DNA from: Ginglymostoma cirratum
Taxonomy: Eukaryota
Length of the DNA stretch: 64,000 nt
Assembly (NCBI GenBank): GCA_024137785.1
Contig: JAHRHZ010000021.1
Span: 27,391,745 to 27,455,744 of the forward strand
Direction of reading: 5' to 3'
The position numbers were made by a program, and so were the translations under genes. This document shows positions 5,190 to 62,110 of this stretch, in pieces. Every line of letters begins with the position of its first letter. Positions within the stretch are counted from its first letter, which is position 1. The notes under the pieces were generated by a model. The model was not told the origin of the DNA and did not search any database. It was given only the letters and a program-made list of their open reading frames with translations.

Positions 5190-5283
5190 ACAAAAACAAA
5201 GTTGCTGGAAAAGCTCAGCAGGTCTGGCAGCATCTGTGGAGGAGAAAACAGTTAAATGTTTTGGGTCCGGTGACCCTTCCTCA
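5190..5283 (-). mobile_element. Short PLE terminal-repeat copy with hammerhead-like core
   Basis: Reverse complement reads tgagga-a-gggtc-accg-gaccc-aaaa-cattt...cagatgctgccagacctgctgagcttttccagcaac, same family as 6723 and 58561. Confidence 0.8.
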
Positions 5284-5397
5284 ATGGTTGCTCCTGTTCT
5301 GCTTGATCACCTTCCTTTCCTGGGTTCTCGCTCTCTGGACTCTGAAAGTTGCCCACCAGCACTTATTTGCTGTTCTGAGGAAAGGTCACTGGACCTA
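5281..5397 (+). repeat. ~115 bp near-identical copy of 6630-6746 (genomic flank + start of the 6723 element)
   Basis: tcaatggttgctcctgtt...gttgccca(c/t)cagcactt(a/g)tttgctgttctgaggaaa(g/a)gtcactggacct at both loci, with only scattered substitutions. Confidence 0.92.
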
Positions 5398-6722
5398 ATA
5401 ACCCTCAGATGAAAGCTGACGTCCTTCTCTTTGCCAGAATTTTCTCTTGGTGTTCTTTTCTCCTGGACTGGAGAAACATCGCATGTGAGATAACCTATTT
5501 TACCGAATTTGCCTTTGTCAAGGGTGTGTCTATGGGATGTTACAATATCGGAACAATTTGTTGTGTAGTTAAATCTATTATTCTATCAAGTTTTTCAATA
5601 GAGCTAAAGTTAAACCAATTCTTCTTTCATTTGTTTATATTTTAACTGGGAGTACAAATAAAGTGTGTTTTGCTTAAAGCTGAGTAGTGTCACCAATTGA
5701 ATTACATCTGGAACACAGGACCTTACACTTCTTTTAAATAAGGTAAAAGTTAGGGTCCAGGCTACCACCACAATATATTTGAAGAGGGTTTGGTCTGGTC
5801 CATAAAAATTGTCATCAGCTACCACCAAAAATGCCAAACACATGAATGAGGATTTCAGTGGCAAGTGGATTGATATATTGGGAGAAATGGATGACATCAT
5901 GCACATGGATGCTTGTCGTCTGCTTGTAGGATCAGAAGCTTAACGTGATGTTGAATAGGTTTCTGAGGTTGTGAAAGGTCTGATTTTAGCTAGAGATAGT
6001 GACTGAAGAGGGATATGAAAACATTAGTGATGGCACAGTTAGTTAGGGCCAGAAGCTAACAGCTCAGATCTGTCCAACATAAAGCTGGAGGGAAAGAAAA
6101 AGCAGCTTATCCAATGCTGGATATCAAACAGTCTTACAACATGAAGTTGTAAGAGAAAGAGCTATGATGATCCCAAACCAGGTCACCAACTTGGCTGTGA
6201 TCCTGGATGAGACTAGCAAATCATTGCTATTAACATGTTTGGGGAACCAGTAACTCTTAGTTTTAAAATAGACAAAGGGGAGTTCCAGAGAATAAAGCCA
6301 CAAGTTTCCACTATTTTGAGCAAATAACAGTAAGCTTATAAGCTAGAACAATATTACAATCTCCAATACATGTAAAACTTTCTTCTAGTACCCAAAATTA
6401 ACGTAACTAACATGGGTGTTGCAGTATATTGTGATTTAACACCCCATAGCATATATCACCGAATGATCATGATCATGACATGACAGATCCCACAGATTTG
6501 TTAGTAACCCTCAGATGTTATTGACATGATGGGTCATCAAATTTTAATAAACTTTTACAAGGGTTTTCAATTCTTCACTTTTGATCTGACCTGAAAGTCT
6601 CTCGCTCAAGCCATTCCATCATGGCCTGTCTCAATGGTTGCTCCTGTTTTGCTTGCTCACCTTCCTTTCCTGGATTTTCGCTCTCTGGACTCTGAAAGTT
6701 GCCCATCAGCACTTGTTTGCTG

Positions 6723-6856
6723 TTCTGAGGAAAAGTCACTGGACCTGAAACGTTAACTCTCATTTGTTCTTCAGATGCTGCCAGACCTGCTGAGCTTTTC
6801 CAGCAACATCTGTGTTTGTTCCTGATTTACAGCATCCTCAATTCTTTTGGTTTTTT
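6723..6856 (+). mobile_element. Short PLE-derived element with minimal hammerhead motif and 15-bp TSD
   Basis: gtt-CTGAGGA-a-aagtc-actg-gacct-GAAA-cgtt-aac. TSD ag(c/t)acttgtttgctg at 6708-6722 and 6857-6871. Confidence 0.88.
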
Positions 6857-7359
6857 AGTACTTGTTTGCTGACTCCTGACTCGACCGAGCTAACATTTGC
6901 CCCTGGCGACTCATCTAGCTCGACTGTACCAAGCAACTGCTGCATGTGACTTTGAACTTTCACTGTCAGCTGCCTTGAAGAATTAATGCTTGCAGGCTTC
7001 CTTGGAATGCCTCACAAGCTAGCCACAGCAAGCTTAATCTTGTGCCTTTACCTGGGACTTAGCTACATTGAATTGTTCAACTCCACTTGACTCCATCCCT
7101 GTCAGACAGCTAAAAATCATGAAGTGTGCTCTGTCTTTATCTTGTTCTTCAATTATCTGTGACCCTTGAACTGCTTTTCCATGACCCCTTAGCAGTGTTG
7201 AGTGAGCTGTTGAAAACATTTCACTAAACCGCAGCCCTATTGCAGTCCAGAATTGAATGTTGCCACTTAACCACTCTTGGAACACTCTGTATCATTAAAT
7301 GTTGCAATGTCCCCATTTTCACAATGCTGGCTTTCAGCACTAAGAATGCTTACTTACCA

Positions 7360-7448
7360 CTTCTGCTGTTTTCAAGGGCAGCTCGGACCGGGTAATAAAT
7401 GTTGGCCCTACCAGTGATGCCCAGATAGCATGAATGAATTAATAAAAA
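7360..7448 (+). mobile_element. LINE/SINE 3' tail fragment (same tail as the 60.2-62.1 kb LINE)
   Basis: ttcaagggcagctcggaccgggtaataaatgttggccctaccagtgatgcccagatagcatgaatgaatt. Related copies at ~12005-12070 (-), ~15675-15780 (+) and ~56640-56720 (+). Confidence 0.65.
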
Positions 7449-8949: not shown

Positions 8950-9650
8950 AGTAAAATGGGCCAGATATTGTGGATCTATTAGGTGACCTTTTCCAAATCA
9001 TGCTAGATTCAAGGATTAGATGTAGAATTTGAATATAGTAAATACTGCATTTTTATTCAAAAAGGATGAAAGGACACAACAAGAATTGTTAGCATCAGAC
9101 TTTAAGGTCAGTGATTAGAAAGTTGTTAGCATTCATCAGGGTCAAAATGAATAGACATCAGATTTACAGAATGTCATTATGAATGAAGGGCCAGGTAAAC
9201 CCCAATAGAATCTCAACAGTCATGAGGGGATGAACAGAGCAAGTTAAGTACATGGATTGTGAGAAATTTATTAGAGCCTACACAAGAGATCTAGCTAAAT
9301 TTGAAGTATCTGGAATTGAGAGAGGATTGTGACTTGGGAAGGAAAGGGTGAGAGTGAAAGAACTAAGTTATAAGGGGCATTCTCAGATTGGTGGGTGGTG
9401 ACAAATAATGTTCTTGGGGATTATTTTTGGATTTGGGGAAGAGGGGTAGGTGTTTTCACATACGTAGATATGATCTAACTTTAAGAATTCAGTTGAGCAT
9501 ATCTGGGTTTGCAAAGATGCCAAACTAGACAAAATTTTTAAAAGAACAAATTTACTTCATTAAACTGATTGTAAAGTGATTGCTGAAGCAGTTAAGCAAC
9601 ACCGGTGTGATGCAGTGTATTTTGAAGGAGCTAATTAAATCTGAACAAGA
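8950..9650 (+). mobile_element. Highly decayed CR1-type LINE ORF2 fragment
   Basis: Patchy similarity to the CR1 RT regions at 24100-24700 and 34320-34660 (ttttccaaatcatgctagattcaagg..., gggtttgcaaagatgccaaact). Confidence 0.45.
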
Positions 9651-9696
9651 CACCATGAGACGTACTAGCTGTATGTCCTCATTGCCAGAACTGGCA

Positions 9697-9795
9697 GTTC
9701 TGAAGAAGGGTCACTGGTCCCAAAATGTGAACTCTGATTTCTCTCCACAGATGCTGCCAGAGTTGAGATTTTCCAGTAATTTCTATTTTTGTTTA
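9697..9795 (+). mobile_element. Short PLE-derived element with hammerhead-like core
   Basis: agtt-CTGAAGA-a-gggtc-actg-gtccc-AAAA-tgtg-aact...cagatgctgccagag. Confidence 0.78.
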
Positions 9796-13558: not shown

Positions 13559-13807
<249 letters not shown>

Positions 13808-16800
13808 TAAGTTAATTTTTTTTTAACGTCAATCAAATTTGACAAGGCCAGTATTTTAACAAAGTAAGATACAATTTCTATCATTCCTCATTCAGCGTGA
13901 CTTGCAAATGCAAAATTGTTTCCCTATGGGAGAAAAATACTGGTACTACTGACCCTTGCCATGACGGTACGAGCAGAAGTGAGTCAACCCGTACAGCTTG
14001 GTAAATAGAATTTCTATGACTTTTGAGGACCTGCACGTACACTTGGCATCTTATTTTCTCCTGTTTTCAGATACGAGGCCAAGTAGTGAAACGGGCTCAG
14101 CCGGAAATTGTAATTAGGCAGGGTAACTGAAAGGAAAATCAAAAAGATGAACTTTGAGCAAGTTTTTAAAATGAGCAGTGTGATTTAGGAATGCCCCTTC
14201 ACACACCCTTAGCACCAAAGGAGTGTGAGATAACATAATCAACATACACAACTACCTGAAGCTTCCTTTCTGTAGAAGTGTTTTTTTGGGGGAACATTGA
14301 GATAATACTTGGAGAGGAACAAGAAGTACTTTTTAAAACTTTGTGTCTACTTGATAATTGGAAGTTCCACCTTGCATTCATCTCAAATAAGTTAATCTAG
14401 TTTGTTTTATGTTATATTCCCAGGGTCAGTGGCTTAGATGATTTTCACAGTTTCTGCTTTAATTCACTGTTTGGAAGTCCACGTGGGCAACTTGGGGATC
14501 ACACTTTTCACTGTGAACAGGCATCTGAGTCTCTGCTTGGTTCTTTGCAAGGTAGCATGTTGACAAGCTAAATTCTGTCGTATGCAGGATCAGTCCTGGA
14601 TAATAGCACTGTCACGGCTCCAAGTGATGTTGCTATAACAACTTTTTGATGTCAGTAAAGAGCAGTGTTACAATGGTAATAGTTGGTGGCCTCGGTCGAT
14701 GTTACGAGGTGAATATATAGGTAATATGTGAAGGGAGTATTTCTGCACAGCTTAAAGATAGATTTTTGTGCGACTTCCAATACAGCTGTATTGAAAGGAA
14801 AACCCAGTGAGTACAGTGTGTGTCATACCATGCACTCTGCATAGAAATGTCCCTTCTGAAGTTGAGTGAAAGTACTTTTCAGAATGAATGCAACTGGCAC
14901 ATTGATGAATATTATCATATAAACTAGGCAAAACTTCTGTTGCTGCAACAGCTTCCTAATGCAAAAAAAATCCATTTCCCAGTGGTTATAGTCTAAAAAT
15001 ATGTACTGTTTAAATGATGGCCATAGAGTGTTGGTATGTTCACCAGACGTGTTGATTTCATTCCATTGGAGTTGTATGTCATATCGAATTTCAACTGTTT
15101 ATCATGAGAGTATAAGCAAAGATGCTGGAACTCTGAAATTAAAAAAAGAGTGCAGTGAAAGTCTGTTACGCTTTTTTAGTGCTAAAAGCACCATTCCCCA
15201 ACACCCCTCAATTCCAAAGAAAAGTCACAATCGAGTCGACGCATTTATTCACTTTTTCTCTCGACAGATAGTTTGTCCAGCACTTTGTTTTCAATTCACA
15301 ATGAGGATGTCCTTTAAATATATAATTGAAAGGATGACCAAGTTGGTCTGTTTTGTCTCTGGATCGCTCACTGTAGTGAATACTGTAGTCAGTGGTCAGT
15401 GGTTAGTACTGCATATGGCAAGTCTACTTGATGCTTATCCTGTTAGAATTGCAACGTTGAAGTCCCTTAAGATTTGTCTGCCTTTGTTTCAATATGCAGT
15501 ATACCTTTCTTAATTTGAAGTCAGTTAGTTCAAATAACTGATTAATGTGAGGTGTTCTAAAAATCTTCCCAGTGCTATTTACTTAATAAATATGATGAGT
15601 TAAATCAAATTCTAATATGAAAGTAACTAAGATTCTATTGACAAGATACTGCTGATTGTACTGCACATGAACTGCAGTAGTTCAGGAGGTAGCTCACAGC
15701 CAGCTTCTCAAGGGCAGCTAGGGACAACACTAAATGCTGGCCAGGCAGCAATACCAGCATCCTGCAAATGAACAAAAAAAATGTAGACCTCTAATAGCAT
15801 TGGTTAATGAGTCATAAAAGACTGATGATCTAGTGTTTGAACCCAGTGATCTGAAAGTGAAGAGCAGACATAAATCTATCAGACAGCACATATCTAGTGT
15901 ATCTTCTAACTTGTGTTCAACTGTTATGAGTACTACTTTGATTTCTTCAGAGCAACTGCTGAGATGGTTAACTTATATGACAGGTACGTCTCGTCACGCT
16001 CCCCCTTCATTGCATTGGATGATGCTTGCACTTTGCCATTATTGATTGTTCATTTTATTCTAGCTTTGAGCAGTTATTATAATTGGTTGAGTACAATGCC
16101 AGCTTCCATCTCCATGTGATATTGCTGATGTTTCCATGCTGTGAAGCCTTCTATTTTCACTGGGTGTTGCATATTATCCTAACAGCTAGTCAACAGTAAT
16201 CCAAGAAAGAAAGCACGCAATGATCAGAAATACTTGTGTTCTGTTTTTTATCTTGCTGTTTTACCAACAAACATATGCGTATGATAAAAGTACGCATGCA
16301 CAATGATGGTGTCCATTAATCAACTTTTACTTATCAAAAATTTAAACAAGTAACATTGGGATAATGTATTGAATAAGAGTGGAATAAAACACCATCTATT
16401 GTAGAGCTGTTGAAATTTTTCTTTTTAAATATTGTGCCTTTAATTTGCCTACCACAGTGAAAAGTGAGAGTGAGCTTCAAGAATTCAATATTAGTTGTGA
16501 AGATGGATACTATATCAAATTTTGGTATAGGTACATGAATCCAGGTTATGCCAATCAAGATAGAATTTGGATATGTGGTGGTAGTGGTTATGCAGTAGTT
16601 CTTTTGCTTAATTTTTATTTTTTAATCTTCTTTTATTACTTTTCCTGTTGAGCATTGGGTATACAGTGAGTTGGTGAACTTTAATTTTGATTTGTCATGT
16701 CCCACCTTCTCCTCATTGTCGTACAGTTAATATTATGTTTCCCTTTTCTTTAAATTACATAATGTGAATAAATTATTCTGGAAAGAAATTAGTAATTTCC

Positions 16801-20404: not shown

Positions 20405-21096
20405 CAACATAGAATCAGAGAACCCCTACAATGTGGAAAGAGGCCACTTAGGCCATCAAGGGGCGGTACGGTGGCTCAGTAGTTAGCACTGCTGCCTCAC
20501 AGCTCCAGAGACCCGAGTTCAATTCCACCCTTGGGTGTCTGTGTGGAGTTTGCACATTCTCCCCATGTCTGCATAGGTTTCCTCCTGGTGCTCCGGTTTC
20601 CTCCCACAGTCCAAAGATGTGCAGGTTGCGTGAATTGGCCATGCTAAATTGCCGGTAGTGTTCAGGGATGTGTAGATTATATGTGTTATAGGGGACGGAT
20701 CTGGGTGGGATGTTCTGAGGTTCGGTTTTGGGCCAAAGGGCCTGCTTCCACACTAGGGGTTCTGTGATTTATGATCTAAGTCTGCTCTCACTATCCAGCG
20801 AGTATCCCATCCAGACCCAGCAACCCCCCACCCCCACACCCTATCCCCATAACTCCATATTTACCACAGGTAATCCACCTAGCCTACATCCCTAGACACT
20901 GTGGGATAATTTTGCATAGCCAGTCCACGTAACCTGTACATCCTTGGACTTGGGAAAAAACTGGAGCATGGCAGAAACTCATGCAGGCACTGGGAGAACA
21001 TGCACACTCCACACAGGCAGTCACCCAAGGCTGTGATCAAACCCAGATCCCTGGTGTCGAGGTGGTAGTGCTAAACACTGACCCCACCGTGCCACC
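20405..21096 (-). mobile_element. Older HE1/V-SINE split by a younger, oppositely oriented HE1
   Basis: 20405-20460 is the reverse-complement tail (tagaatc...ccctacaatgtggaaagaggccac). 20781-21096 is the reverse-complement body and head (...cactccacacaggcagtcaccc...cactgaccccaccgtgccacc). Confidence 0.8.
20461..20780 (+). mobile_element. HE1-type V-SINE (nested)
   Basis: gggcggtacggtggctcagtagttagcactgctgcctcacagc...gagttcaattcc...ctgtgtggagtttgcacattctccccatgtctgc...gggcctgcttccacactaggggttctgtga. Confidence 0.9.
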
Positions 21097-25860: not shown

Positions 25861-26566
25861 TGCATCACTCAGCGAACAGGAAATCCAAGCCCAGCTATTC
25901 ACGAAAGTTTTATAAAAGTCCACAAACTTTGTGAATTTCCCTGCCTTTTTAGACTCAGGTTAACAAAGTATGGAACAAGGCTTCAGTGTTTCACAAGACT
26001 TGCTAATAAATAGATTCTAGGTACAGGTAAACAACTATGAACTGTTGGTATATGACCAGTCAAACTTTAATCTGTTATAAAACTCCCCCTACACACAAAC
26101 ACACACACAGGCAGAGACAAATGAATAAAACAAAAATGATGTTATGGGTGGAGAGAAAAACTGGAAAGCCAATTCAATTGTCTCTGTCTTAAAGCTTCAC
26201 TGAGCTGATCATTTAGGCTTAGTAGGACTTCCTTCTCCTTAATCTCACTCCAGATATTATGACTTGCCTACACAAAGCACAGAGTGAATGAATCACAGCA
26301 CATAAAGTCCCTGAATTAATGGTTTAAAGTAACAGCTTACAGCAACTGCTGAGTTGTAAACCCACTTTCTTCAGGGTTAGGGTGTTTTCACTGCAGAGAA
26401 AAGGACACCACCTCCCCTTTCAGAGGTCCAAAGACTTTGCTATTTTGTCCTTATCTACAAGAACTGTGTAATTGGCTCAGTACTCGTGTACTGATATTAA
26501 TGTTAGTTCTACAAATAAGAGCTAAATTCTCCATTACACTACTTCTTTCAGTAGTTTCTTTACCCA

Positions 26567-26672
26567 GTTCTGAAGAAGTAACACTGGACTTGAAACATTA
26601 ACTCTGCTTTCTCTCGGATGACAGATGCTGCCAGATCTGCAGAGTTTCTCCAGCAGTTTCTGTTTTTGTTTC
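26567..26672 (+). mobile_element. Short PLE-derived element with hammerhead-like core
   Basis: agtt-CTGAAGA-agtaacactggactt-GAAA-catt-aact...acagatgctgccagatctgcagagtttctccagc. Confidence 0.75.
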
Positions 26673-27549
26673 TCCTTCAGTGCTTTCTAAGCTCACTGTG
26701 TTTGTCAGACCAACTTTCTTACTGTCCCAATCTGATACCCGCTAATCCACAAGCCATGCATTTTTTTTTCTTTGGTTTCATGTTTGATTCCCTTTTGATT
26801 AAGTTTCTATCTCACTATGGTACCAAAACAGTTTCACTTGACATCAATTACAACTTTGTAACTGTGCCAAAGGTAAACATAAGAAATTAAAGTACAAGTT
26901 GGCCATTTTATTCCCCTCATGCCTGCCCCAGCATTCATTAAGTTGATCTGCCCCCAAGCCTCAACTCCTGTGTTGTGCCAGCTCCGCATAGCCCTCAACT
27001 CCCTGATATTTCAATAAAAGCTATCTACTTCCTCTTCAAAGACTTTTATTATCTAACCTCCACCTTCTTCAGTATAGAATTCCAGACATTCACTACCCTC
27101 TAGTGGAAGGAATTTCTTCATGTCTGTTTTAAATGTGAGTTACAGAACAGGGGAAAAATCTTCTCAATTCTACTGTCAAGCCCCCTCAAAACGTACATGT
27201 TTCAATAACATCATCCCTCATTCTCCAAAACTCTAGTTAATAATGGTCTAAGCTTGGTAAGTCAACCCCTTCATCTCAGGAATCTGCCTAATGAATCTCT
27301 TGTGATCTGTTTCTACTGCCAGTATATCCTTTTCTTAAATATGGAGACCAAAACTGTACTCAGTACTCCAGGTATGACCCCTGAACAGTTGAAACAAGGC
27401 TTACATAGTTTGGAACTCCAACCTAGGAATAAAGGCTAAAAGTCAATTTGTCTTAATTACTTGCTGCAACTACATGCTGACTCACTTTTCTGCATTAAAC
27501 TCAATCTACCAAGTTTTTGCCCACTTAGTATCCCCTTTTAAGATTTGTT

Positions 27550-29885: not shown

Positions 29886-29927
29886 CCAAGTCTGATTATA
29901 AAGCCGCTCATACATGCCTCCATTAGT

Positions 29928-31299: not shown

Positions 31300-31781
31300 T
31301 GATTGAACCCCCTTCTCCTCCACCCCCCCCCNNNNNNNNNNNNNNNNNNNNNNNNNNNNNNNNNNNNNNNNNNNNNNNNNNNNNNNNNNNNNNNNNNNNN
31401 NNNNNNNNNNNNNNNNNNNNNNNNNNNNNNNNNNNNNNNNNNNNNNNNNNNNNNNNNNNNNNNNNNNNNNNNNNNNNNNNNNNNNNNNNNNNNNNNNNNN
31501 NNNNNNNNNNNNNNNNNNNNNNNNNNNNNNNNNNNNNNNNNNNNNNNNNNNNNNNNNNNNNNNNNNNNNNNNNNNNNNNNNNNNNNNNNNNNNNNNNNNN
31601 NNNNNNNNNNNNNNNNNNNNNNNNNNNNNNNNNNNNNNNNNNNNNNNNNNNNNNNNNNNNNNNNNNNNNNNNNNNNNNNNNNNNNNNNNNNNNNNNNNNN
31701 NNNNNNNNNNNNNNNNNNNNNNNNNNNNNNNTGATGCTGCTTGGCCTGCTGTGTTCATCCAGCTCTACACCTTGTTATCTC
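31300..31781 (+). mobile_element. PLE terminal-repeat copy spanning a 400-N gap
   Basis: Left flank gaacccccttctcctccacccc matches 54206-54225. Right flank tgatgctgcttggcctgctgtgttcatccagctctacaccttgtt is identical to 54274-54318. Confidence 0.8.
31332..31731. other. Assembly gap (400 N)
   Basis: Run of N. Confidence 1.
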
Positions 31782-32979
31782 CCATGAATCGGAACCTATT
31801 TCTCCCACAGCGATCTTTCAGCCATGCATTTACATGTTTAATCTTATTTTACTTAACGCCAACTTGCATGTGGCTCAGCTAGTAACTGGGAGATTATTAT
31901 CCTTGTCATCCTGCTTTTTTAATTTAGCCAGAGCTTCTTATAATACCCCAGCAGAACCTGTTTCCAAGTCCAACCTGTGTCATTTGTATCTACATGAATC
32001 ACGACAACTGGATCCTACTGTTACATTTCTCTGTTTTTTGCCCCAATTTAAATGGTGCTCTGGATCATTTCAGATCACTCATCCTTCTGTGGTCTGTATC
32101 CTCGGCCATACCAGGAACAAGAACACCATACCTGTTGGACAAGGACATAGGCTGATGCTCTGTCATAGCTAAATTCTGCATACCAATACCTGCCTTGCTG
32201 TCAGTCACACCCTATCCTTGACCATGGACCAAATTTGATGTAATTAATCTAAGGGATGTGGCTATGTTCTAAAACAATGTGGTCAGGTAACTCTTACCCC
32301 TCCTTGTTGTGTCACAGCAGCCACCGTGCAATCTCCAGCTCATCAGCCCTGAGCTGAAGTTGCTTCAGCAGCCAACATTTGCTGTAGGTGCAGTGACCTG
32401 CATCCACCAGTTCCCACATGCAGCTGGAAAACACCACCTGCCCATCCATTCTATTTTACTTCTAAAAGTAATATATATGTGAAGTATTTTAAAAGTGTAT
32501 TTCTTAACTGTCAGCTCTTGTGATGCATTGGTAGTGTCCCTATCCCTGGGCCAGATGGCTTGCGTTCACCTTCTCCAGAGGTGTGTCATAACATGTCCGA
32601 ACAAATTGTTTGTGCATAATTTTCTTAATTCTCCTCTTCAGCTATAGTACTTCTCCTGATTTAAACCACTTGACCCATCGAAAGAGAGACAGTAGAAATA
32701 CCCTGTTTCACTGTGATGTCACATATCAGCTCTGAAGAGTAGAAACAGGTTGAATATGTCAGTTTTTCAGCTCCCACTCCAGCAGGTTCATTCTCCATTT
32801 CCCTCTGCATCCTTTTGGCATTTGGTATAACTAGTCATACCATCCTCTGATTCTTGTCCACTGTCATCTAGCCTGGATTCCTCCTGGACTGCACACTCCC
32901 AGTTTTGTACTTATTTATCTAACTGTTGTGAGAGGATATTCTGTCATGGCTTCTCTTTCCACTTCTATATATTTGCCTT

Positions 32980-34269: not shown

Positions 34270-35188
34270 ATACTACAATCTTTTACAGAGAATGTGATAA
34301 TTGTGTACGTGGATAATAATGGTCTGATCAGTCAGAGTCAACATTGCTTCCTCTTCATAAATCCATGTTTTAAAAACCTGTTAGGCTTGTTGTGAGGATA
34401 TTACAGGCATAGTAGTTAAGGGAAAACTAATGAAAATGACAAATTTTGGTTTTCAGAAGGCTTTTGATAGCATCCCACACAAGAGGGTAGTAAACTAAAT
34501 AGTGGATAAGGATTAAATACAGTATGGATTGAGAACTGGTTATCAGAGAATGCTAATAATTGGTCATTCTCAGTTTGAAAGGCTGTAATGAGTAGTGTGG
34601 ATCTGGGTACTAAGTGCAATATTTCCAAGTATACTGATGACACAGAACTAGGTGGGAATGTAAAATTAAAGCAGAGAAATGGCTGGAAAATCTCAGCAGA
34701 TCTGGCAGCATATGTGGAGAGAAAGCACAGTCAATGTTTCAGGCCCAGTGACCCTTCATCAGAACTAGTAGTAGCGAGGAAAAGGTGATATATATGCTGA
34801 AGGAGAGTCAGGGGTAAAGAAGTGAGAGGATTAGTAGAGCTGGAGGACAGTGGGAGAGAAAGCCGTTCGATTAATTATGGGATGGATTATCGTCTACTAG
34901 GGGAGGCGAAAAACTGATAATGGGGACCGTAAGTATATGTAAATGGATTGTGCTGAAAGCAGCCCGTGTTCTGACAGAGCCTGGGCTGTGGGGCATGGCA
35001 GAAGTACATTGTGGGGAAAATGTAAAGTTTTTCATTTGAAAGAGAGAACAAAACAATAGAATATTGTTTACACTGAGACAAACTGCAGAAGGCTGCAACG
35101 CAAAGGAATGTGGGGATACTTGTGCATGAAACACACAACTGGCATATAAATGCAGCAGGTAATCAGGAAGGCTAATGTTGGCCCTCAT
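34270..35188 (+). mobile_element. Decayed CR1 RT fragment interrupted by a PLE 3' end
   Basis: FQKAFD remnant and ISKYTDDTELGG (ORF 34588); resumes at ~34990 after the insertion. Confidence 0.7.
34662..34985 (-). mobile_element. PLE 3' end with intact-looking hammerhead core
   Basis: Reverse complement reads gtt-CTGATGA-a-gggtc-actg-ggcct-GAAA-cattgac, preceded by a pyrimidine-rich UTR like 53950-54230. Confidence 0.78.
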
Positions 35189-36424: not shown

Positions 36425-36550
36425 TAAAAGCAAAATATTGCAGATGCTGGAAATCTGAAATAAAAATAAAATGCTAGAGATACTCAACAGGAGTGTTACC
36501 ATCTGGGGGAAGAGAGTTACTATTTCAAATCCAATGTGACACTTCAGAAC
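36425..36550 (-). mobile_element. Old, decayed short PLE-derived element
   Basis: aaaagcaaaatattgcagatgctggaaatctgaaataaaaataaaatgctagagatactcaacagg...cttcagaac, colinear with 58561-58700. Confidence 0.65.
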
Positions 36551-42231: not shown

Positions 42232-42390
42232 GATCATAAGATCATAATGTATAGGAGCAGAATTAACCTATTCGGCCCATCGAGTCTGCTGTACCAGTCT
42301 ATCGTGGCTGATATGTTTCTCAAACCCATTCTCTGTTTTCTCCCCGTAACCTTTGATCCCTTTTCTAATCAAGAACCAGTCTACCTCTGA
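42232..42390 (-). mobile_element. CR1 3' tail fragment
   Basis: cataagatcataatgtataggagcagaattaacctattcggcccatcgagtctgct. Confidence 0.65.
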
Positions 42391-44782: not shown

Positions 44783-44900
44783 TTCTGATGAAGGGTCCCG
44801 ACCCAAAATGTCGACTTTTCCATTCCTCTGATGCTGCCTGACCTGCAGTGTTCCTCCAGCTCCACACTGTATTGACTCTGACTCCAACATCTGCAGACTT
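44783..44900 (+). mobile_element. Short PLE-derived element (subfamily of the 51-54 kb PLE) with hammerhead-like core
   Basis: tt-CTGATGA-a-gggtc-cc-gaccc-AAAA-tgtc-gac...cctctgatgctgcctgacctgcagtgttcctccagctccacact...tctgactccaacatctgcag. Confidence 0.82.
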
Positions 44901-45920: not shown

Positions 45921-45944
45921 ACCCCCACCCTGAAAGTGATGAAG

Positions 45945-46970
45945 AAACTGAGCAGGTTTGGCAGCCTCTGTAAAGAGAAAAACAGAGTTCATGTTTTGAG
46001 ATCAGCGACCCTTAGTCAGAAATGAAAGCAGCTGGGAAAGGATTGTACTTATGCTGATGATGGGGTTTGGGTTGGGGATTTACTGATTAGTCGTGGTAAG
46101 GAGTGAATAGAATACATTGAGATAGTATGAGAAATAAAAAATGGAGAGACAATGAAGAGATTGCTGATAAATTGAGAGGGAGATAAATGCTAAGTAGGGT
46201 GCTATTGAGAAGTGTGAATGTTTGAAAAAGGGTTTGCTGGAAAATACCCATTCAAAACAGGTGTTGGGGGGGTGGGGGGAAGACAAAAAACACGTTCACA
46301 TTGTGAAATTGTTAAACTCAATGCTGAGTCCTGAAGGCTGTAAGGTACTTAGTCTGAAAATGGAGTGTTGTTCCTCCATCTTCCAGTGAGATTTGCTCGA
46401 GCACTGCAGCAAGCCTGAGAGAGAAATGTTAGCATGGGAACATAGTTACATGTTGAAGTGGCAGGCAACTGGAAGCTCAGGTCATTTTTTGCTGACAGAG
46501 CATGAGGCTCTGCAAAGCAATCTTTCAGACTGTGTTTCGTCTCCCTCCGCAACCGCAACCCCCCCCCCCCCCCCAACTTTGTGTAGAAGAGACCACATTT
46601 TTAGCAGGGAGTACTGTAAACTAGATTGAGGAAGTGCAGATTCCCCTGGTCCTCGTGTATGCCCCACCAGCCTCCAAAGGCTCATAAGCCACCATTTTTA
46701 CCATCTCCAGCAAGATGCCTCTACCTGATGCACATTCCCCCTCCTCTCCCCTGTCAGCATTCTGCAGGGACCATTCCATCTGAGACCTCCTGGTTCACAC
46801 CTCCTCTACTCCCAGTCCCCTCTCTCACCATCACAGCATCTTCCCATGCAATCACAAAAGGTGCAACACCTGCCTATTTACCTCACCTCCTCCACACTAA
46901 ACCAAGCCCCAGACACACCTTCCAGGTGAAACAGCAGTGTACCTCCATTCAATCTAGTTTACTGCATGTT
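45945..46970 (-). mobile_element. Decayed PLE 3' end with 5' inversion (minus 45945-46640, plus 46640-46970)
   Basis: The minus part has the terminal repeat, a hammerhead remnant and GIY-YIG remnants (LPATS, CSARA..WRNNTPFS). The plus part is colinear with 53308-53640. The two parts overlap at caatctagttta. Confidence 0.75.
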
Positions 46971-51085: not shown

Positions 51086-54000
51086 GAGATAGTAGGAACT
51101 GCAGATGCTGGAGAATCTGAGATAACTGATAATCTGATTCTCCCTGCGATTCCTGAAACACACACACGCAGCAATGCGCAGCCATCTCCTTGCACTACAA
51201 TCAAGCCTACCCCAGCTCAGAGCCTCCCTCTCCCAGATCTGCAAAGGACTTCTCCTGTTTTTTATTCTTCATAGGATCCACAACCTGAACTCTCAATTCT
51301 ACTCAGCTTTATTGGACACTAAAAACCGTAAGTACAGTAAACTTACTGGTGCCTACCACCCAAAACTGGCTTCCTCCACCTCCCAAATCCCCAACCCTAC
51401 CCAGGACCTTCCCCACAATGTGCCCCCCCGCCGTTGGCCATGTGGCCACTGTCGGAGAACCCATGGATGACATCACATCCTCCGCCACCGGGTACACCAC
51501 TTCCGGGACAGCGAACGCCATCGACACCGTTGCTGATGCCACCGCCTCCATTTCCGAGGTCAACACACAGACACTGAAGACACACCTACCATCACCGCTG
51601 CTGCCGCCGCCTACCCCACTCTGCCCACCACCAACGCCAAGTCTGCCTACTGCCAACGCTGACGCAACTCCGCCCACAGCCGACGCCAACTGCCTCCACA
51701 GCCAGCAGCTCCAGAGGAGACAGTAGCATCCAGCCCTGCTGAGTCTTCACTATCCCCCCAGACCTCCCCCTTACTGAGGGCAAACAGTCAGCCCTCAGTA
51801 AAGGGCTCGCCTTTGTCCCCCTCCATCCACACATCAATGAATACCGGTCATGCTTGGACGTTGAACAGCTTTTCCGCTGCCGCCGCCTCTGCCTCTGCGC
51901 TCGCTTCTTCAACCGTGAGCCTAACCCTCCCTCTACTGACCCTTTCTCCAGCCTCCGACGCACCTGTCCTCCTGGACACCACCCCAAGGCCTCCTACCCT
52001 CCCTCGACCTCTTCATCTGCAACTGCCGTTGAGACATCAATCGCCTCAACCTCTCCACCCCTCTCACCCACTCCAGCCTCTCCCCCGCAGAACGTGAAGC
52101 CCTCCATTCCAATCCCAACCTCACCATAATCTCCGCGGACAAGGGAGGCACAGTTGTAGTATGGCGCACTGACCTCTACATCGCCGAGGCCAGGCGCCAA
52201 CTCTCCGACACCACCACCTACCGCCCCCTTGATCATGACCCCACCCCCGACCACCAAACCATCATCTCCCAAACCATCCACAACCTCATCACCTCAGGTG
52301 ACCTCCCACCCACAGCCTCCAACCTCATCGTTCTCCAACCCCGCACCACCCGCTTCTATCTCCTTCCCAAAATCCACAAACCTGACTGCCCTGGTCGACC
52401 CATTGTCTCCGCCTGCTCCTGCCCCACCGAACTTATCTCCACCTATCTCAACTCCATTTTCTCCCCCTTGGTCCAGGAACTCCCTACCTAAATCTGACAC
52501 CACCCATGACCTCCACCACCTCCAGAACTTCCAATTCCCCAGTCCCAACACCTCATCTTTACCATGGACGTCCAGTCCTTATACACCTGCATTCCCCATA
52601 CAGAAGGCCTAAAGGCCCTCCGCTTCTAGCCTGTCCCGCAGGCCCGACCAGTCCCCCTCCACTGACCCCCTCATCCGCTTAGCCGAACTCGTCCTCACCC
52701 TCAACAACTTCTCTTTTAATTCCTCCCACTTCCTACAGACAAAGGGGGTGGTCATGGGTACCCGCATGGGCCCAAGCCAGGCCTGCCGCTTTGTAGGTTA
52801 CGTGGAACAATCCCTCTTCCGTAGCTACACTGGCCCTAACCCCCAGCTCTTCCTCCGTTACGTTGATGACTGTATTGGCGCCGCCTCGTGCTTCCACGAG
52901 GAGCTCGAACAGTTCATCTACTTCATCAACACCTTCCACCCCAACCTTAATTTCACCTGGACCATCTCTAATACCTCTCTCTCCTTCTTGGACCTCTCTG
53001 TTTCCATCTCTGTCAACCACCTAGAAACCGATATCCATTTCAAGCCTACCAACTCCCACAGCTACCTAGAATACGCCTCCTCCCACCCATCTTTCTGCAA
53101 AAATGCCATCCCCTATTCCCAATTCCTTCGCCTCCACTACATCTGCTCCCAGGATGAGGCATTCCACTCCCGTACATCTCAGATGTCCTCGTTTTTCAAG
53201 GACCGCAACTTCCCCCCCTCAGTGGTCGAGAACGCCCTCGACCGTGTCTCCTGCATTTCCCGCAACTCATCCATCACGCCTTCTCCCGGCAATACCAACC
53301 AAAACAGAATCCCCCTTGTCCTCACGTACCACCTCATCAACCTCCGGATCCAATGCATCATCCTCCGACACTTCTGCCATCTGCAATCCGACCCCACCAC
53401 AAAAAGACATTTTTCCTTCCCCACCTTTATCTGCTTTCCGGAGGGACCACTCTCTCCGTGACTCCCTTGTCCACTCCACACTCCCCTCCAGCCCCACTAC
53501 ACCCGGCACTTTTCTCTGCAACCGCAGGAAGTGCTACACCTGCCCCTACACCTCCCCCTCACCCCCATCCCAGGCCCCAAGAAGACTTTCCACATCAAGC
53601 AGATGTTCACCTGGACATCTGCTAATGTGGTATACTGCATCCGCTGTTCCCGTTGTGGCCTCCTCTACATCGGGGAAACCAAGCGGAGGCTTGGGGACTG
53701 CTTTGCGGAACACCTACGCTCGGTTCGCACTGAACAACAGCACCTCCCAGTCACGAACCATTTCAACTCCCACTCCCATTCCTCAGACAACATGTCCATC
53801 CTGGGCGTCCTGCAGTGCCACAACGCTGCCACCCGAAGGTTGCAGGAACAGCAACTCATATTCCACTTGGGAACCCTGCAGCCCAATGGTATCATTGTGG
53901 ACTTCACAAGCTTCTAAATTTCCCTTCCCACTACGGCATCCCAAAACCAGCCCAGTTTGTCCCCACCTCCATAACCTGTCCTTCTTCCCATCTCAAGCCC

Positions 54001-54318
54001 CACCCCCATCTCCTACCTACTAACCTCATCCCGCCCCCTTGACCTGTCCGTCCTCCCTGGACTGACCTACCTCCCCCCTAACTCTCCACCTACACTCACC
54101 TTTACTGGCTCCATCCCCACCTCTTTGACCTGTCTGTCTCCTCTCCACCTATCTTCTCCTCTATCCATCTTCTATTCACCTCCCCCTCTCTCTCTCTTTA
54201 TTTCAGAACCCCCTTCCCCTCCCCCATTTCTGGTGAAGGGTCTAGGCCCGAAACGTCAGCCTTCCTGCTCCTCTGATGCTGCTTGGCCTGCTGTGTTCAT
54301 CCAGCTCTACACCTTGTT
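51086..54318 (+). mobile_element. Penelope-like retroelement (Neptune-type): RT + Cys linker + GIY-YIG endonuclease, frameshifted, 5'-truncated
   Basis: Motifs LSKGLAFVP, ADKGGTVVV, FYLLPKIHKPDCPGRPIVS, FTMDVQSLYTCIP, QTKGVVMGTRMGP, LRYVDDC, CNRRKCYTC, NVVYCIRCSRCGLLYIGETKRRL..FAEH, split over several frames. Pyrimidine-rich 3' UTR and terminal repeat follow. Confidence 0.95.
54226..54262 (+). ncRNA. Minimal type I hammerhead ribozyme motif in the PLE terminal repeat (A6>G variant)
   Basis: CTGGTGA(54230-54236)-a-gggt-ctag-gccc-GAAA(54250-54253)-cGTC. Palindromic ACGT in place of stem III, as described for PLE hammerheads. Confidence 0.7.
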
Positions 54319-54801
54319 GGCCCTTGGTGCTTAGGCACCTGTTTTACAATAATAAAACAAGCCCAAAGCTATGAATGGCGAATGCTTTCTCAACCCTTTT
54401 TGAAGCATTGTGCTAATCATTGTCAAGCTGGCAATTAGCAGCATTTTTATCTCACCTTCTTGGCAGTCACATCACAATTGAACACCTGCAACCGGAGTAG
54501 TGAGTTTTTTAAAAATCTTTTCTGCACACTAACCACAAGTGGTGAAAATGTTCCGCAGTAGAGCAGCAGCAAGGTAGTTCAGAAGTCACAGGTTAGTTCT
54601 GCAATTGAAATTAGAGTTTTGCCCTAAAGATGGTCATACTTCTGTTCAGAGTAACTTGAAAGGATTATGATTGGTTCAATTTACTGTCCATTAAAGAAGA
54701 ATTTTCAAGCAGGTGGACTCATTATGCAAATAATTAACCAATAAGTTTGACACAGCTCCTGTCAGAATGCCTCCTACCTGCCAAACTGAAGGAAGTACTA
54801 A

Positions 54802-54952
54802 AAACAGAAGTTGCTTGAAAAGCTCAGTAGGTCTGGCAGCATCTGTGAAGAGAAATCAGAGTTAACGTTTTGAGTCAGGTGAGCCTTCCTCAGAACTTCT
54901 CGTTTTTCTTTGTTTCTGATTTACAGCACCTGCAGTTCTTTTGGTTTTTATA
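54802..54952 (+). mobile_element. Short PLE-derived element with internal inversion and 13-bp TSD
   Basis: TSD aaggaagtactaa at 54789-54801 and 54953-54965. 54802-54896 is the hammerhead-bearing part on the minus strand; 54897-54950 is the 3' tail on the plus strand. Confidence 0.85.
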
Positions 54953-56586
54953 AAGGAAGTACTAACTGCAGTTTGGGATAAAGCGTCACCTGGTACCATC
55001 CAGTCCCTCAGAGTGAGAGTTGCTCTTCAGCAGTAAATAACTTGGCCAAAGAAGAAAAATAAGGGACTAAGAATAGTTCTTGAAAATTTATTGGATTTTG
55101 GACAACAATTACATGCATTTTGTTATGTTTTGTATTTGGCATCTGTCTGAGATAAAAAGTTTAGTTGCATTGCCAGGGAGAACTGTATTCCTAAGACAAC
55201 AGTAAAGGTTAACAAAAAGAATTAGCAGAACTGGAATTTAACATGTCCCAGTATCGAAATAACTACCTATATTTAATTTAATACACTGAGCCAAATTCTG
55301 TTTGCTGCAGAGAAAGTATTGAAAAAGATATCTGAATGGTCTACAGACTGAAATAGGTGCTGAAGATGCAGTTCAGAATAGTTCACTGCTTTGTGGATAC
55401 GAAATATTGCATGGTATACCAGTTGCAGCAGGCTTGTTTCCTTGAGTAAAATACATTCAAGGCATTGTAATTTAATCCCTTTCTCTATTGCGGAGTCATC
55501 ATTGAATATGTTTTTCTATAAATTTGTTCTTAGGATGTCGGCAAGGCAGCACTCATTTAACATCTTCAGTTGCGCTGAAAACATTAGTTGTGAATTACAC
55601 AAAGTGGGCCTGGAGACACATGTCAGCTAAATCTGCAAAATTTATCTTTTTGCAACAATTGGACAGCTTTCATTAGAAATTTTTTATCCCTTGGTGATAA
55701 CCTACATATTACCTTGTTAATTAAATTAATTTTCATCTACACCCCCAATTCTCCTGGTGAAATAGGCCAATTTTTCAGGTGTACAGTCAGTTTATCAGAG
55801 TGATACAGCATATTTCTCCTCTTGAATATAAATAGAATATTTGAACAAGTCAATGAAGGTTGAAAACAGGCCATGGTTATAACCCCAACTTATATAGGCA
55901 AAGCATAATGAAATGAAACCTGCCAGACCTGGTACAGAAACGTAGTGTTCTAACTGAAAGACCTAACAATACATTTTGCATCTTTTTAAAAAATAAAACA
56001 AATTCAGCAAACTTGAGTTCTAATCCATTCTCTCCTGGAGGATAGCTCTTGTTTGGGAATCTTATTTTTGTTTTGGGCAAGGTGACTGTGTCTCAATTTT
56101 CTGAGATATTTGAGAACATAGATTTTAAAGTGAAGGGAAAATGGATTTTAATTTGAGTCCTGTGAAGGTCTGACATTTTGTTTTAAAGGTCAGAAAGTCA
56201 CTTTGAACATGAGTTTGAATAGCAGATACAAAAAGTCATGTGATTTTCAGCTATGTGACCAGCAAGCCACATGGGGAGACAATTGCTGAATTGAGTTTTT
56301 ATTTACTGAGCCACAAATGACTTCATGCAGGGGAAAGGGCCATAACAGCAGAGGTGTCATGTCAAGCAGTCATGTCAGAGGAGGAGTCCAGAGGTACTTG
56401 GAGATCAGTGAGAAGAAATCTTCAGAAGCCTCTTACCTATTACAATAGTTACGTCATCAAAAAAATTCCAGTTTGTTCAGCATGATTTGCTTTTCAAAAA
56501 CCCATGCTGACTTTGACTGATCTTTTTAATGTTTTCCAGATGTTCTGTTATCACATCTGAGACTCCAGGCAATCTCATTACCACCT

Positions 56587-56596
56587 NNNNNNNNNN
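56587..56596. other. Assembly gap (10 N) with identical 47-bp flanks
   Basis: 56540-56586 is identical to 56597-56643. Confidence 0.95.
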
Positions 56597-58560: not shown

Positions 58561-58706
58561 AATAAAAGCCAAAAGAACTGCGGATGCTATAAATCAGGAA
58601 CAAAAACAGAAGTTGCTGGAAAAGCTCAGCAGGTCTGGCAGCATCTGTGAAGAAAAAATCAAAGTTAATGTTTTGGGTCTGGTGACCCTTCCTCAGAACT
58701 GTCTTC
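58561..58706 (-). mobile_element. Complete short PLE-derived element with hammerhead-like core and 14-bp TSD
   Basis: TSD attagaaatgtctt at 58547-58560 and 58707-58720. Reverse complement reads agtt-CTGAGGA-a-gggtc-acca-gaccc-AAAA-catt-aact. Confidence 0.88.
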
Positions 58707-60219
58707 ATTAGAAATGTCTTCTTTTGTTTATGAAAATCTGAAAACGAATCAGTAGCATTTTACATTTAATGACACACATTTCACTAAATGACATTGACCT
58801 GCTTTGTGCACTTATAGCTAGTATTATTCCTTTGTAAATGTTCTTTTGCTGAGTTGGTTATTCAAGAAGGTGTGTAAGGGAGATTTAAAAGCTGGTGATG
58901 TACTGCACTCTCCAGTTTAAAGTTAATTTCAAATAGGGCAAGGACAACCAGAAACAACCAAATTATATTTTATTGCTAAGTTCCAAAGTTAGTTTTTTCA
59001 TTGCAGCTCTGAAGGACATGACTTGCACAATTGATACAAAGTCAGCTGATGTACTCTGCTGACAGCTGTGTGGAAGTCTAGGTTCATTGGTTTTGATCTA
59101 AATTGCCAAAATAAATTATGATTTATATGCATTTTTAAATTAAAATTACTTTGAGCCAAGGCGAGAAAAAGATAAGGTTGGGTGAGAAAATGCAGCGTAA
59201 ATTGTCAAGTAGTTACATTGTTTTGGGTTGTCAGTGAAAATGACTGTTGTCTATTCAAGATGTTCAAACTACATTGATATCTGCCCTTCTGACTTCTATT
59301 CAGAAATCAATTATTCACACTTGTTTCCTTGCATTAGGGAAATGTACTATTTAAACTTTACAATGCCACACAATCATTGTTGTAACACATGAGCTTTCCA
59401 ATGATGTGTAAGTTACAGGGAACCATTTTGAGAAAGCATCTGGTGTTACTTATGCAAGTGCTGGCGAAGCTTAAATTGATTAAGTGCAATTTTTGTAAAG
59501 TCTTTTTTTTAATAAAAGAAATGTGTAATTTCCTCTAAGCTTAATTTTACCTTTCTTTAAATTAATATTGACTTTACACATCTAATTAAGCTGGGCTACT
59601 CACTTTCCTTTCACTTGGTATCTGTGCCCAAAATGGCAAAGTGCATGGTGTGAAGCATGATTCTTGCAAATACCCTTATGGCTGATTGATTGCCAAAAGG
59701 CGCAGAATGTGGAATTGAATTTAGAATAAAAGTTCTCATCTGCAAGCTCTAAAGTTTAGACGTAAATTGAGTTTAGACAACATCAATTAATTTTCTTCAG
59801 GGACTTTCATCAGTAGCACAAAGCAGTTCATAATTTAGTACTCAGGAAATCTTGTTGAAAGAGCCATAAACATAACATGCTGCAGGTGTCAATGTAGCAT
59901 ATAAGTGTTGCCCTTCTGAAGTTGGAGGCAAAAGTACAATATTGGAACAATTCAAAGTCCTGACCCAGGGGTGTTAAATAATAATTCTAGATACAAAAGA
60001 AGGCTGTTCCACTGCCCTGTACGAACATCCCTCACCTTGGTGTAAACTAAAATGCCACTGAAAATTTTCTCAGTCTCCTGGATTTTTAACAAAATCCAGT
60101 AGTCTATCACAATGACCACAGCCCCTCCTCCAACATCTGTAACATTTGTCTATGCCCTACTCTATTCTCCTGCACACCAGCATCCCCCTTCAAATTCTCC
60201 CAAACTCCATGATTCTTTG

Positions 60220-62110
60220 TTTTATTTGTTTGTGGGATGTGGGCGTCACTGGCTAGCCAGCATTTAATGCCTGTTCCTAGTTGCCCTTGAGAAAGTAGTG
60301 GTGAGCTGCCTTCTTGAACTGCTGCAGTCCACCTGCTGTGGGTTGACCCACGATACCATTAGGGAGAGAATTCCTGGATTTTAACCCAGTGACAGTGAAG
60401 GAACAGCGATGTATTTCCAAGTCAGAATGGTGAATTACCTGGAGGGGAACTTGCAGGTTCCCATGTATTTGCTGTCCTTGTCCTTCCAGATCAAAATAGT
60501 CACCGGACCTGAAATGTTAACTCCGATGTTTTTTTTTAAACGGATGCTGACAGACCTGCTGAGCTTTTCCAGCAACTTCTGCTTTTGTTCGAGGTTTGGA
60601 AGGTCTGAGGATCTTTGGTGAATTTCTGCAGTGTACCTTGTAGATAGTGCACACTGCTGCTACTGAGATTCAGTGGTGAAGAGACCAGATGCTTGTGGAT
60701 GTAATGCTAATCGAGCTTGCTGCTTTGTCCTGCATGGTTTCAAGCTGATTGAGTGTTGTTGGAGCTACACTCAACCAGGCAAATGGGGAGTGTTCCATCA
60801 CACTCCTGACTTGTGCCTTGTAGATGGTGGACAGGTTCATCAGGAGATGAGTTACTCACCACAGTATTCCTAACCTCTGATCTGCTCTTGTGGCCACTGT
60901 GTTTATGTGGCGAGTCCATTTGAGTTTTTCGTCAATGATAACCCCCAGGATGACACCATTGAATGTCAAGAGTGGTGGTTAGATTGTCTCTTGGTGATGG
61001 CCATAGCCTGGCATTTGTGTGGCATGAATATTACTTGCCACTTACCATCCCAAGCCTGGATATTCTCCAGATTTTGTTGCATGAGAACATGGACTGCTTC
61101 AGTATCTGAGGAGTCACGAATTGTGAACATTGTGCAATCATCGGCGAACATCCCCACTTCTGACCTTATGATGGAGGGAAGGTCATTGATGAAGCAGCTG
61201 AGATGGTTGGGTCAAGGACACTAACCTGAGGAACTCCTGCAGAGATATCCTGGAGCAGAGATGGTTGACCAACGACTATGACCATCTTCCTATGTTCTAG
61301 GTGTGACTCCAACCACTGGAGAGTTTGCACCCTGATACCCATTGATTCCAGTTTTGCCAGGGCTCCTCGGTGCCACTGTCGGTCGAATGCAGCCTTGATG
61401 TCAAGGGCTGTCACTCTCACCTCCCCTCTGGAATTCAGCTGTTTTTCCATTTTTTGAACCAAAGCTGTGATGAGGTCCAGAACTGATGGCCCAGGCAGAA
61501 CCCAAGCTGGATGTCAATGAACAGGCAGAGCAGCTGCCACTTGTTAGCGCTATTGATGACACCTTCCATCACTTTACTGATGATCGAGAGTGGACTGATG
61601 GGGCGGTAATTGGCCGGGTTAGATTTGTCCTGCTTTTTATGTGCTGAATGTATCTGGGCAATTTTCCACATTGTTGGGTGTATGCCAGTGTTGGAACAGC
61701 TTGGCTAGAGGAATGACAAGTTCTGGAGCTTGAGTCCCGTTATTATTGCCAGAAAGTTGTCAGGACCCATTGCCTTTTCAGTATTCAGTATCTCCAACCA
61801 TTTCTTGATATCATGTGGAGTGAATTGAGTTGGCTGAAGACTGGTATCTGTAATGCTGGGGACCATTGGAGGAGGCCGAAATGGATCATCCACTCGGCAC
61901 TTCTGGCTGAAGATTGATGTAAATGCTTCAGTCTTATCTTTTACACTGATGTGCTCGGCTCCTCTATCATTGAAGATGGGGATATTTGTGGAAGCTTCTC
62001 CTTCAGTGAAGCTATATTTATCTGTCAGTGTTTAACTATCCACCACCATTCATGGCTGGATGTGGCAGGATTGCAGAGCTTAGATATGATCTGTTGGTTG
62101 TGGAATCGTT
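60220..62110 (-). mobile_element. 5'-truncated LINE (CR1/L2 group), RT domain decayed
   Basis: KAMGPDN, WKIAQIHSAHKKQDKSNPANYRPISPLSIISKVMEG, ALDIKAAFDR, GVPQVSVLDP and FADDCT in successive frames; 3' tail at 60220-60330. Confidence 0.9.
60498..60589 (+). mobile_element. Short PLE-derived fragment nested in the LINE
   Basis: gtc-accg-gacct-GAAA-tgtt-aact...gatgctgacagacctgctgagcttttccagcaacttctgcttttgtt; the CTGANGA box is lost. Confidence 0.78.

Follow-up and report, generated by a model that had tools for sequence, protein, structure and literature searches.

Short repeats of roughly 100 to 140 bp with a hammerhead ribozyme motif are scattered through a 64,000-nucleotide (nt) stretch of the genome of the shark Ginglymostoma cirratum (contig JAHRHZ010000021.1, positions 27,391,745 to 27,455,744 of the forward strand; the whole stretch is called the window below), which also holds a long Penelope-like element (PLE) with reverse transcriptase (RT) and GIY-YIG endonuclease (EN) domains. 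The locus raises the question of whether these repeats multiply as a unit of their own or are left behind by the long elements. A preliminary description of the window regarded them as a discrete, self-propagating unit resembling a short interspersed nuclear element (SINE) or a retrozyme, derived from a Penelope terminus and mobilised by an RT-GIY-YIG protein. Copies were located here by self-comparison and profile search of the window (17 matches in total) and followed in a sample of the genome. Mobilisation by the RT-GIY-YIG protein was supported as likely, but the short repeats proved to be the front ends of two ordinary PLEs, not a separate mini-element.

The repeat module was numbered from the A a little 5′ of the first hammerhead core box (+1). 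All copies in the preliminary description were recovered at, or within a few bases of, their positions, and its consensus corresponds to one family, here termed A (5190, 6723, 9697, 26567, 34662, 36425, 45945, 54802, 58561 and 60498). It had, however, merged two families, as 44783 and 54230 belong to a second family, B, together with 31731 and 51088. The genome sample comprised 140 segments of 10 kb each, taken from large contigs at round-number positions or next to such positions, which is not strictly random; 105 of them held sequence, amounting to 1,016,493 non-N bases (1.02 Mb). This census contained 305 module matches, 154 of family A and 151 of family B, representing about 255 insertions. 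Rough extrapolation from this not strictly random sample suggests copy numbers of the order of one million in the 4.36-Gb genome.

The 5′ ends of the sampled copies were concentrated at one site in both families. Ends were mapped in 78 A and 89 B copies, after exclusion of copies with less than 85% identity (71 A, 35 B), copies at stretch edges or N runs (0 and 23) and copies ending before +70 (5 and 4). In family A, 33 copies began at -5 to +5, three at -20 to -6, none at -100 to -21, 13 farther upstream and 29 downstream of +5; the corresponding counts in family B were 31, 1, 4, 22 and 31. Expressed as a stop rate per nt, the -5 to +5 interval reached 0.104 in A and 0.077 in B. Upstream of it the rate was 0.0024 in A and 0.0016 in B, and over +6 to +60 it was about 0.007, so that the rate at the boundary was 43 to 48 times the upstream rate. 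Solo copies peaked at the boundary likewise (21/52 in A, 19/53 in B), and the peak stayed among copies with at least 90% identity (19/42 A, 15/51 B), with the caveat that older A subfamilies, whose upstream sequence has diverged, may be wrongly counted as short. Among the 30 best genome matches to each of three module-only queries, 20, 20 and 12 started within -4 to +4, starts inside the module being under-represented by construction in these sets. Loose ends at about +2 to +4 were also present in contigs of four sequencing runs, whose kind was guessed; they repeat the genomic boundary and carry no information on a transcription start or on expression. The view that the copies are not random 5′ truncations therefore stood, as did the shared 5′ boundary near the CTGANGA box, although the listed copy at 60498 lacks that box.

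The origin of the module was evident from genome loci found via the 5′ part of each open reading frame (ORF), in which the module continues directly into the ORF. The ATG lies at about +172 in B and about +174 in A, the N-termini of the two products are alike, and an 835-codon open frame spans the family B head region. Because the module runs directly into the ORF, it is the 5′ untranslated region (UTR; +1 to about +135) of a full RT-GIY-YIG element and, through the pseudo-long terminal repeat (pseudo-LTR), also its 3′ end, which bears out the derivation from a Penelope terminus. Both parents have a single ORF with RT followed by GIY-YIG, partial tandems (pseudo-LTR), an inverted 5′ copy and an optional tail, and the family A parent shows 65% identity to the B element of the window over the RT-EN part of the ORF. 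The broken frames of the window element gave Pfam matches to RVT_1 (E = 0.0016) and GIY-YIG (E = 0.0026), both below the curated cut-offs. A C-x4-C-x2-C linker is present in the window element and in one of three family A copies examined; a Zn-finger-like linker motif of this kind is named for Neptune and Nematis in the available text of PMC8557442. Judged from these features, parents A and B appear to be Neptune-type EN+ PLEs, the name Neptune following from a linker motif common to Nematis. A third, rarer module family was also seen (L104:46-133, L039:1616-1740 and L138:4956), with a 3-nt stem II loop and the same downstream layout.

Long copies share the start of the short ones. Of 30 loci chosen by the start of the A ORF, 17 retained the module before the ORF (one interrupted); nine of these began at -2 to +8, one of the nine being bounded by N; another began at +37, and the other seven extended upstream. 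Ten of 20 loci chosen for family B retained the module, two beginning at +2, one at +11 and one at +89, with six extending upstream. As ORF-bearing copies begin at the boundary too, the boundary is a property of the element's template and not of a short unit. At one further locus (L086, about 1800-2085), a new module beginning at -2 adjoins a family B head piece that extends to about +157, the arrangement to be expected after a template jump.

The comparison of short and long copies gave no sign of a short-only lineage. Each of the subfamilies A1, A2, B1, B2 and B3 contained both kinds, and no alignment column separated short from long copies in 97 tests on 93 A copies and 67 tests on 83 B copies; the best columns (p = 0.035 in A, 0.004 in B) were at subfamily sites common to long copies. 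A nearest-neighbour label test of short versus long gave p = 0.11 for family A and 0.16 for family B. Of the 46 short B copies, 12 differed from a long copy by no more than 1%. No tandem arrays were found, with three loose direct neighbours among the 305 matches and none in a tandem-repeat scan of the window. RNA polymerase III (Pol III) A and B boxes were absent from both modules at one mismatch or fewer, as had been proposed, while the same settings found both boxes in three true SINE-like repeats of the window. These belong to a family of about 220 bp (2072-2294, 20457-20679, 20801-21096 and 63191-63411; three with Pol III A- and B-box matches), which is a conventional tRNA-type SINE. The sharp boundary, the target site duplications (TSDs) and the very high copy number (305 per 1.02 Mb) would be accounted for if SINE- or retrozyme-like masters existed, one or several, that were independent but non-autonomous, each being transcribed as a unit and moved in trans. 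The excess of short over long copies is somewhat greater in subfamily A1 (27 to 6) than in A2 (37 to 17), and non-autonomous PLE derivatives do exist, in Chlamys according to parts of PMC8557442 and as retrozymes according to parts of bioRxiv 10.64898/2026.07.22.740005. Against such masters stand the lack of diagnostic columns, Pol III boxes and arrays in these scans, the unique seams of all 50 inverted pairs in the census (see below), the shared start of ORF-bearing copies and a putative TATA box outside the unit. We thus regard independent masters as improbable, and the discrete unit of the preliminary description was not upheld.

What sets the boundary was sought in the sequence around it, by scanning both families for the consensus patterns TATAWAWR and YYANWYY. 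A perfect initiator-like YYANWYY is centred on +1 in both parents, the motif occurring at about 10 of 740 positions. In family A, CATATAAA from -31 is the best TATAWAWR match in the 600 nt upstream, with one mismatch, and the only such match. In family B, TATTTATT also begins at -31, with two mismatches, and is one of four such matches. The sequence between the A/T box and +1 is unrelated in A and B, and diverged A-type ends, including those at 34662 and 45945, bear a similar A/T box at about -30/-31. These signals suggest that RNA polymerase II (Pol II) begins transcription at +1, directed by the TATA-like box at -31 and the initiator, both of which the upstream pseudo-LTR would supply. A putative TATA box and initiator have been noted in the pseudo-LTR of rotifer Pen2a, as reported in the accessible part of PMC3846280.

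LTR retroelements make minus-strand strong-stop DNA, in which internal priming near the RNA 5′ end is followed by run-off at the start. The short copies are probably strong-stop-like cDNAs of this general sort, internally primed on the element RNA and run off its 5′ end. Unlike in LTR retroelements, the proposed primer is nicked target DNA and not tRNA, and insertion would be direct.

Several observations weigh against this interpretation. The case for a transcription start is indirect, being built from sequence motifs and end positions, and the TATA match of family B is weak. The modal start is +2 and not +1, which fits a cut after CA as well. The cap-G test was negative: a G preceded the start in 23 of 77 copies, where 20.2 were expected, and only a post-hoc B subset was enriched (6/11, p = 0.026). 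The share of copies stopping at +1 is similar in 3′-end copies and ORF-bearing heads, which a fixed RT stall predicts likewise. Inverted pairs mixing long and short arms occur (L158; about four in the census). The promoter of Drosophila virilis Penelope is described in the available part of PMC2377424 as internal and TATA-less. Finally, B 5′ ends form a second cluster at +10/+11 (10/89), which includes solo copies and one ORF-bearing head (L031-L150, L276-L295; L167) and may mark another start site or a pausing point beyond stem II.

The similar stop shares are also what would be seen if RT, copying long RNAs from their 3′ terminus, stalled or disengaged where the hammerhead borders its 5′ flank, or if that site were a joining hot spot, the promoter-like motifs being incidental. 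The fold predicted for a natural A copy places the first base of stem I exactly at +1, and the negative cap-G test agrees with such a stall. However, since the 3′ strand of the stem has already been copied by +1, a structural pause would be expected near +38 or +27, and no peak was found near either position. Stem I is only 2 to 4 bp long and differs between B subfamilies, and the TATA box and initiator are kept at fixed spacing within unrelated upstream sequences. The arms of inverted pairs are moreover assortative by type (long-long 4/53, permutation p = 4e-4, with long arms over 600 nt undercounted). A stall appears unlikely, though less so than the other alternatives.

The modal start at +2 directly follows CA in both families, as would be the case if the RNA 5′ end were made at +2 by polyadenylation-type cleavage after CA of a read-through tandem transcript; run-off would still end the cDNA. 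Family A has TATAAA, a poly(A)-signal variant, at -29. Family B has no poly(A) hexamer at -45 to -10, and the rigid -30/-31 spacing, typical of TATA-initiator geometry, fits that geometry better, which leaves cleavage of this type with a small chance. A splice acceptor might also set the boundary, as the intron of D. virilis Penelope ends at the 5′ end of helix I (PMC4209133, in part), and family A has a branch-like motif, a pyrimidine run and CAG at -1 to +2. Yet the G or AG that splicing would remove is kept in most A copies (54 start at or before +2, within 4 nt, versus 8 at +3), family B has no AG at the boundary, and TSDs often adjoin the start, so that splicing is very improbable.

At the other end, the module terminates at two places. 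The 3′ ends of B copies lay at +95 to +103 in 48 of 110 and at +127 to +133 in 45 of 110, and those of A copies at +95 to +112 in 31 of 78 and at +126 to +139 in 33 of 78. Young copies have TSDs of 10 to 18 bp (29 of 90 scored), and a TSD score of at least 10 was reached by 19 of 124 solo copies, including a few duplicate rows, against 1 of 400 shuffled pairs. The two 3′ ends match the pair of internal sites at which the PAc protein (Poseidon clade) of Anolis carolinensis starts RT in vitro; those sites lie 3′ of the hammerhead and set the PAc tail. Both strands are nicked and extended in that system, the main template is uncleaved RNA, RNA from the ORF start is needed, and ribozyme cleavage is dispensable (PMC11167929, in the portions available). 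PAc belongs to another clade, however, and its ORF starts inside the hammerhead (same portions), unlike here, where the ATG lies about 140 nt downstream. Neither a mapped RNA 5′ end nor genomic run-off copies feature in those portions.

Many copies are joined head to head: 100 of the 305 matches form 50 such pairs, and exactly one arm bears the tail in 43 of the 50 (p = 1e-7). By type, 45 pairs were short-short, four long-long and about four mixed. Arm-to-arm identity was higher within than between insertions (0.918 versus 0.868 in B, 20 pairs; 0.836 versus 0.800 in A, 12 pairs), which fits a common subfamily and age and does not separate twin priming from fold-back. Copying of composite hairpins as units was considered and ruled out, as all 50 seams of the inverted pairs are unique. 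Several young copies have an N run abutting their upstream side, in many cases with a few inverted bases visible (L216-L245 and other loci), and inverted pairs may be under-assembled, and hence undercounted, there.

On the strong-stop interpretation, the mRNA would start at +1 and the RT-GIY-YIG protein would bind its own mRNA near the ORF start, nick one or both strands of the target, and prime at an internal site, about +100 or about +135. The cDNA would run off at the RNA 5′ end to yield a strong-stop-like product, which would be joined to the target via microhomology or filler. One priming event would leave a solo stub, and priming from both nicks an inverted pair. The short copies would then be inert dead ends, because the TATA box is lost. 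Copies that pass +1 (16/49 in A, 27/58 in B) might derive from transcripts that are tandem or read through, from a circle formed by ligation, or from a template jump, by which the promoter-bearing pseudo-LTR would be rebuilt. The boundaries, the start common to long copies, the two 3′ ends, the TSDs and the absence of a separate lineage were observed; where transcription starts, binding in cis, twin priming and how long copies get past +1 are inferred. A broader version is possible but doubtful: a general strong-stop step, in which RT invariably initiates within the 5′ UTR of a capped mRNA and reaches the end of its template where transcription began. A jump to the RNA 3′ repeat, or a ribozyme-made circle, would then complete the copy and the pseudo-LTR, the roughly one million short copies would be failed jumps, and the hammerhead region would serve as terminal redundancy.

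The hammerhead itself does not appear to set the start. The minimal type I hammerhead read from the window consensus was confirmed in the majority sequences of families A and B, which contain the core boxes, stem II, stem I and the palindromic stem III, and a natural A copy is predicted to fold into stems I and II. As in the minimal type I hammerheads of metazoan PLEs described in parts of PMC4209133, core boxes, one unpaired base before stem II, a G-C closing pair and a palindromic stem III region are present. The suggested Rfam Hammerhead_1 scan of the window did not detect the motif, its sole match being at chance level (57728, E = 2.5). In stem II, pair 14/25 in A (GC 59, AT 11, GT 10, AC 12; p = 0.003, not corrected for relatedness) reflects one compensatory change among subfamilies, and pair 16/21 in B (TG 68, TA 40) one consistent change, both being subfamily history and not independent events. 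Of the sampled copies, 14 of 82 in family A and 42 of 90 in family B had intact core boxes. Core positions were kept no better than their neighbours in single copies, and CpG sites decayed most; single copies thus decay neutrally. The lowest-energy dimers were predicted to be plain duplexes and not the active fold. Cleavage is predicted after +34 in A and +32 in B, so that the ribozyme would not make the +1 boundary. No pile-up of 5′ ends at the cleavage site was found in A in the census. In B, three of six solo ends within +16 to +60 were at +33/+34 (L113, L034 and L085); the numbers are small, and these three may be copies of cleaved RNA.

The window copies illustrate these forms. Three clean TSDs of 13 to 15 bp had been described and were recovered. 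A short family A copy with tail, starting at about +2 (6722..6854, + strand), has a 15-bp TSD with one mismatch and, alone among the window copies, has kept its hammerhead core boxes intact (1 of 14 matches reaching the core region). Another, running from +1 to about +139 (58563..58700, - strand), has an exact 14-bp TSD and a 6-nt filler at its 5′ junction. The third TSD, an exact one of 13 bp, encloses a family A head-to-head composite (54789..54965) with a short arm at 54795-54896 (- strand, start about +1) and an inverted tail arm at about 54909-54950 (+ strand). This copy and the one at 5190 had been taken for simple units, but both are head-to-head composites. The latter consists of a short A arm from about +5 to +103 (5187..5283, - strand) joined head-to-head to a captured duplicate (5280..5396, + strand; 94% over 117 bp) of window positions 6630-6746, which hold host flank and the 6723 copy as far as about its 25th nt. 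The whole lies between the two members of a TSD-like pair (11 bp, one mismatch), read by eye at about 5178-5188 and 5412-5422. This composite (5178-5422), an A arm head-to-head with a 117-bp copy of DNA from 1.35 kb downstream within one TSD-like pair, possibly arose by capture of local sequence during insertion or repair.

Three further short copies have a decayed core, and no TSD was found at any of them when looked for: a family A copy without tail (9696..9794, + strand, start about +1), an older family A copy (26566..26698, + strand, start about +1) and a family B copy (44783..44897, + strand, start about +3). Family A is also represented by an old, degenerate copy (36432..36545, - strand) and by the copy without the CTGANGA box, which starts at about +15 (60495..60617, + strand). 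A family B fragment (31731..31791, + strand) adjoins an N run. Two further copies have an A-type module with promoter-side upstream sequence: 34673..34800 (- strand; a long-type copy end), with TATA-like CATATATA about 30 nt 5′ of an initiator-like A, and 45932..46057 (- strand), with a TATA-like box at about -30 and an initiator-like TCATTT. The long family B PLE (51130..54319, + strand) is 5′-truncated and frameshifted. An inverted family B tail arm, +92 to +133 (51088..51126, - strand), lies at its left end, followed on the + strand by RT (52613-53458), GIY-YIG (53462-53914, preceded by the linker) and a tail-less module closing its 3′ region (54227-54319).

Elsewhere in the window, a weak U7 snRNA-like Rfam match (9493-9557, - strand; 26.1 bits against a cut-off of 34, E = 0.17) is probably due to chance. 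Self-comparison also related two groups of repeat fragments (29085-29363, 29682-30527 and 43890-44172; 7353-7426, 15660-15781, 45372-45810 and 60216-60827), which are likely remnants of long interspersed nuclear elements (LINEs).

In their make-up the parents resemble the EN+ Neptune-clade PLEs described in parts of PMC8557442 and PMC3846280, which have a single RT plus GIY-YIG ORF, a Zn-finger-like linker, a minimal hammerhead in the terminal repeat, partial tandems forming a pseudo-LTR, an inverted 5′ copy, head-to-head arms with a one-sided, optional tail of 30-40 bp, and TSDs. For known EN+ PLEs, these parts describe variable 5′ truncation, with inverted arms formed by self-priming on an antisense template. 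In contrast, a large share of copies here stops at one promoter-like base, and solo copies of 100-140 bp with TSDs outnumber long ones. The minimal hammerheads surveyed by Cervera and de la Pena are mostly single dispersed motifs, probably tied to truncated PLEs, and neither shark data nor a fixed 5′ boundary is part of the account in the accessible portion of PMC4209133. Non-LTR retrozymes (PMC7229834 and bioRxiv 10.64898/2026.07.22.740005, both in part) likewise have a type I hammerhead, are non-coding and show kinship to PLE termini, but they form head-to-tail tandem units processed by the ribozyme into circles; the copies here occur singly or head-to-head, and their first base lies 32-34 nt 5′ of the cleavage site. 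No prior account of short PLE copies bounded by a transcription start, or of a strong-stop step, was found in the literature searched, which excluded Repbase, Dfam and most subscription papers, and the accessible section of a curation guide gives only variable truncation (PMC8969392). What sets these families apart is that many of their copies begin at one fixed, promoter-aligned position, the elements themselves being of known kind.

As functional elements, the repeats look ordinary and mostly decayed. PLEs are the closest retrotransposon relatives of telomerase, and these copies record a poorly understood copying cycle: how PLEs regenerate a promoter-bearing pseudo-LTR is stated to be unknown in the available part of PMC2377424, and the role of their hammerhead is described as unsettled in that of PMC11167929. 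For two families, the copies show exactly where the RNA is predicted to begin (+1) and at which two sites RT starts, and they put the nick stagger at about 10-18 bp, so that the PLE cycle becomes directly testable. They also offer a possible explanation for the many single minimal hammerheads in animal genomes, which may be by-products of insertion and not working ribozymes or a new class of SINE.

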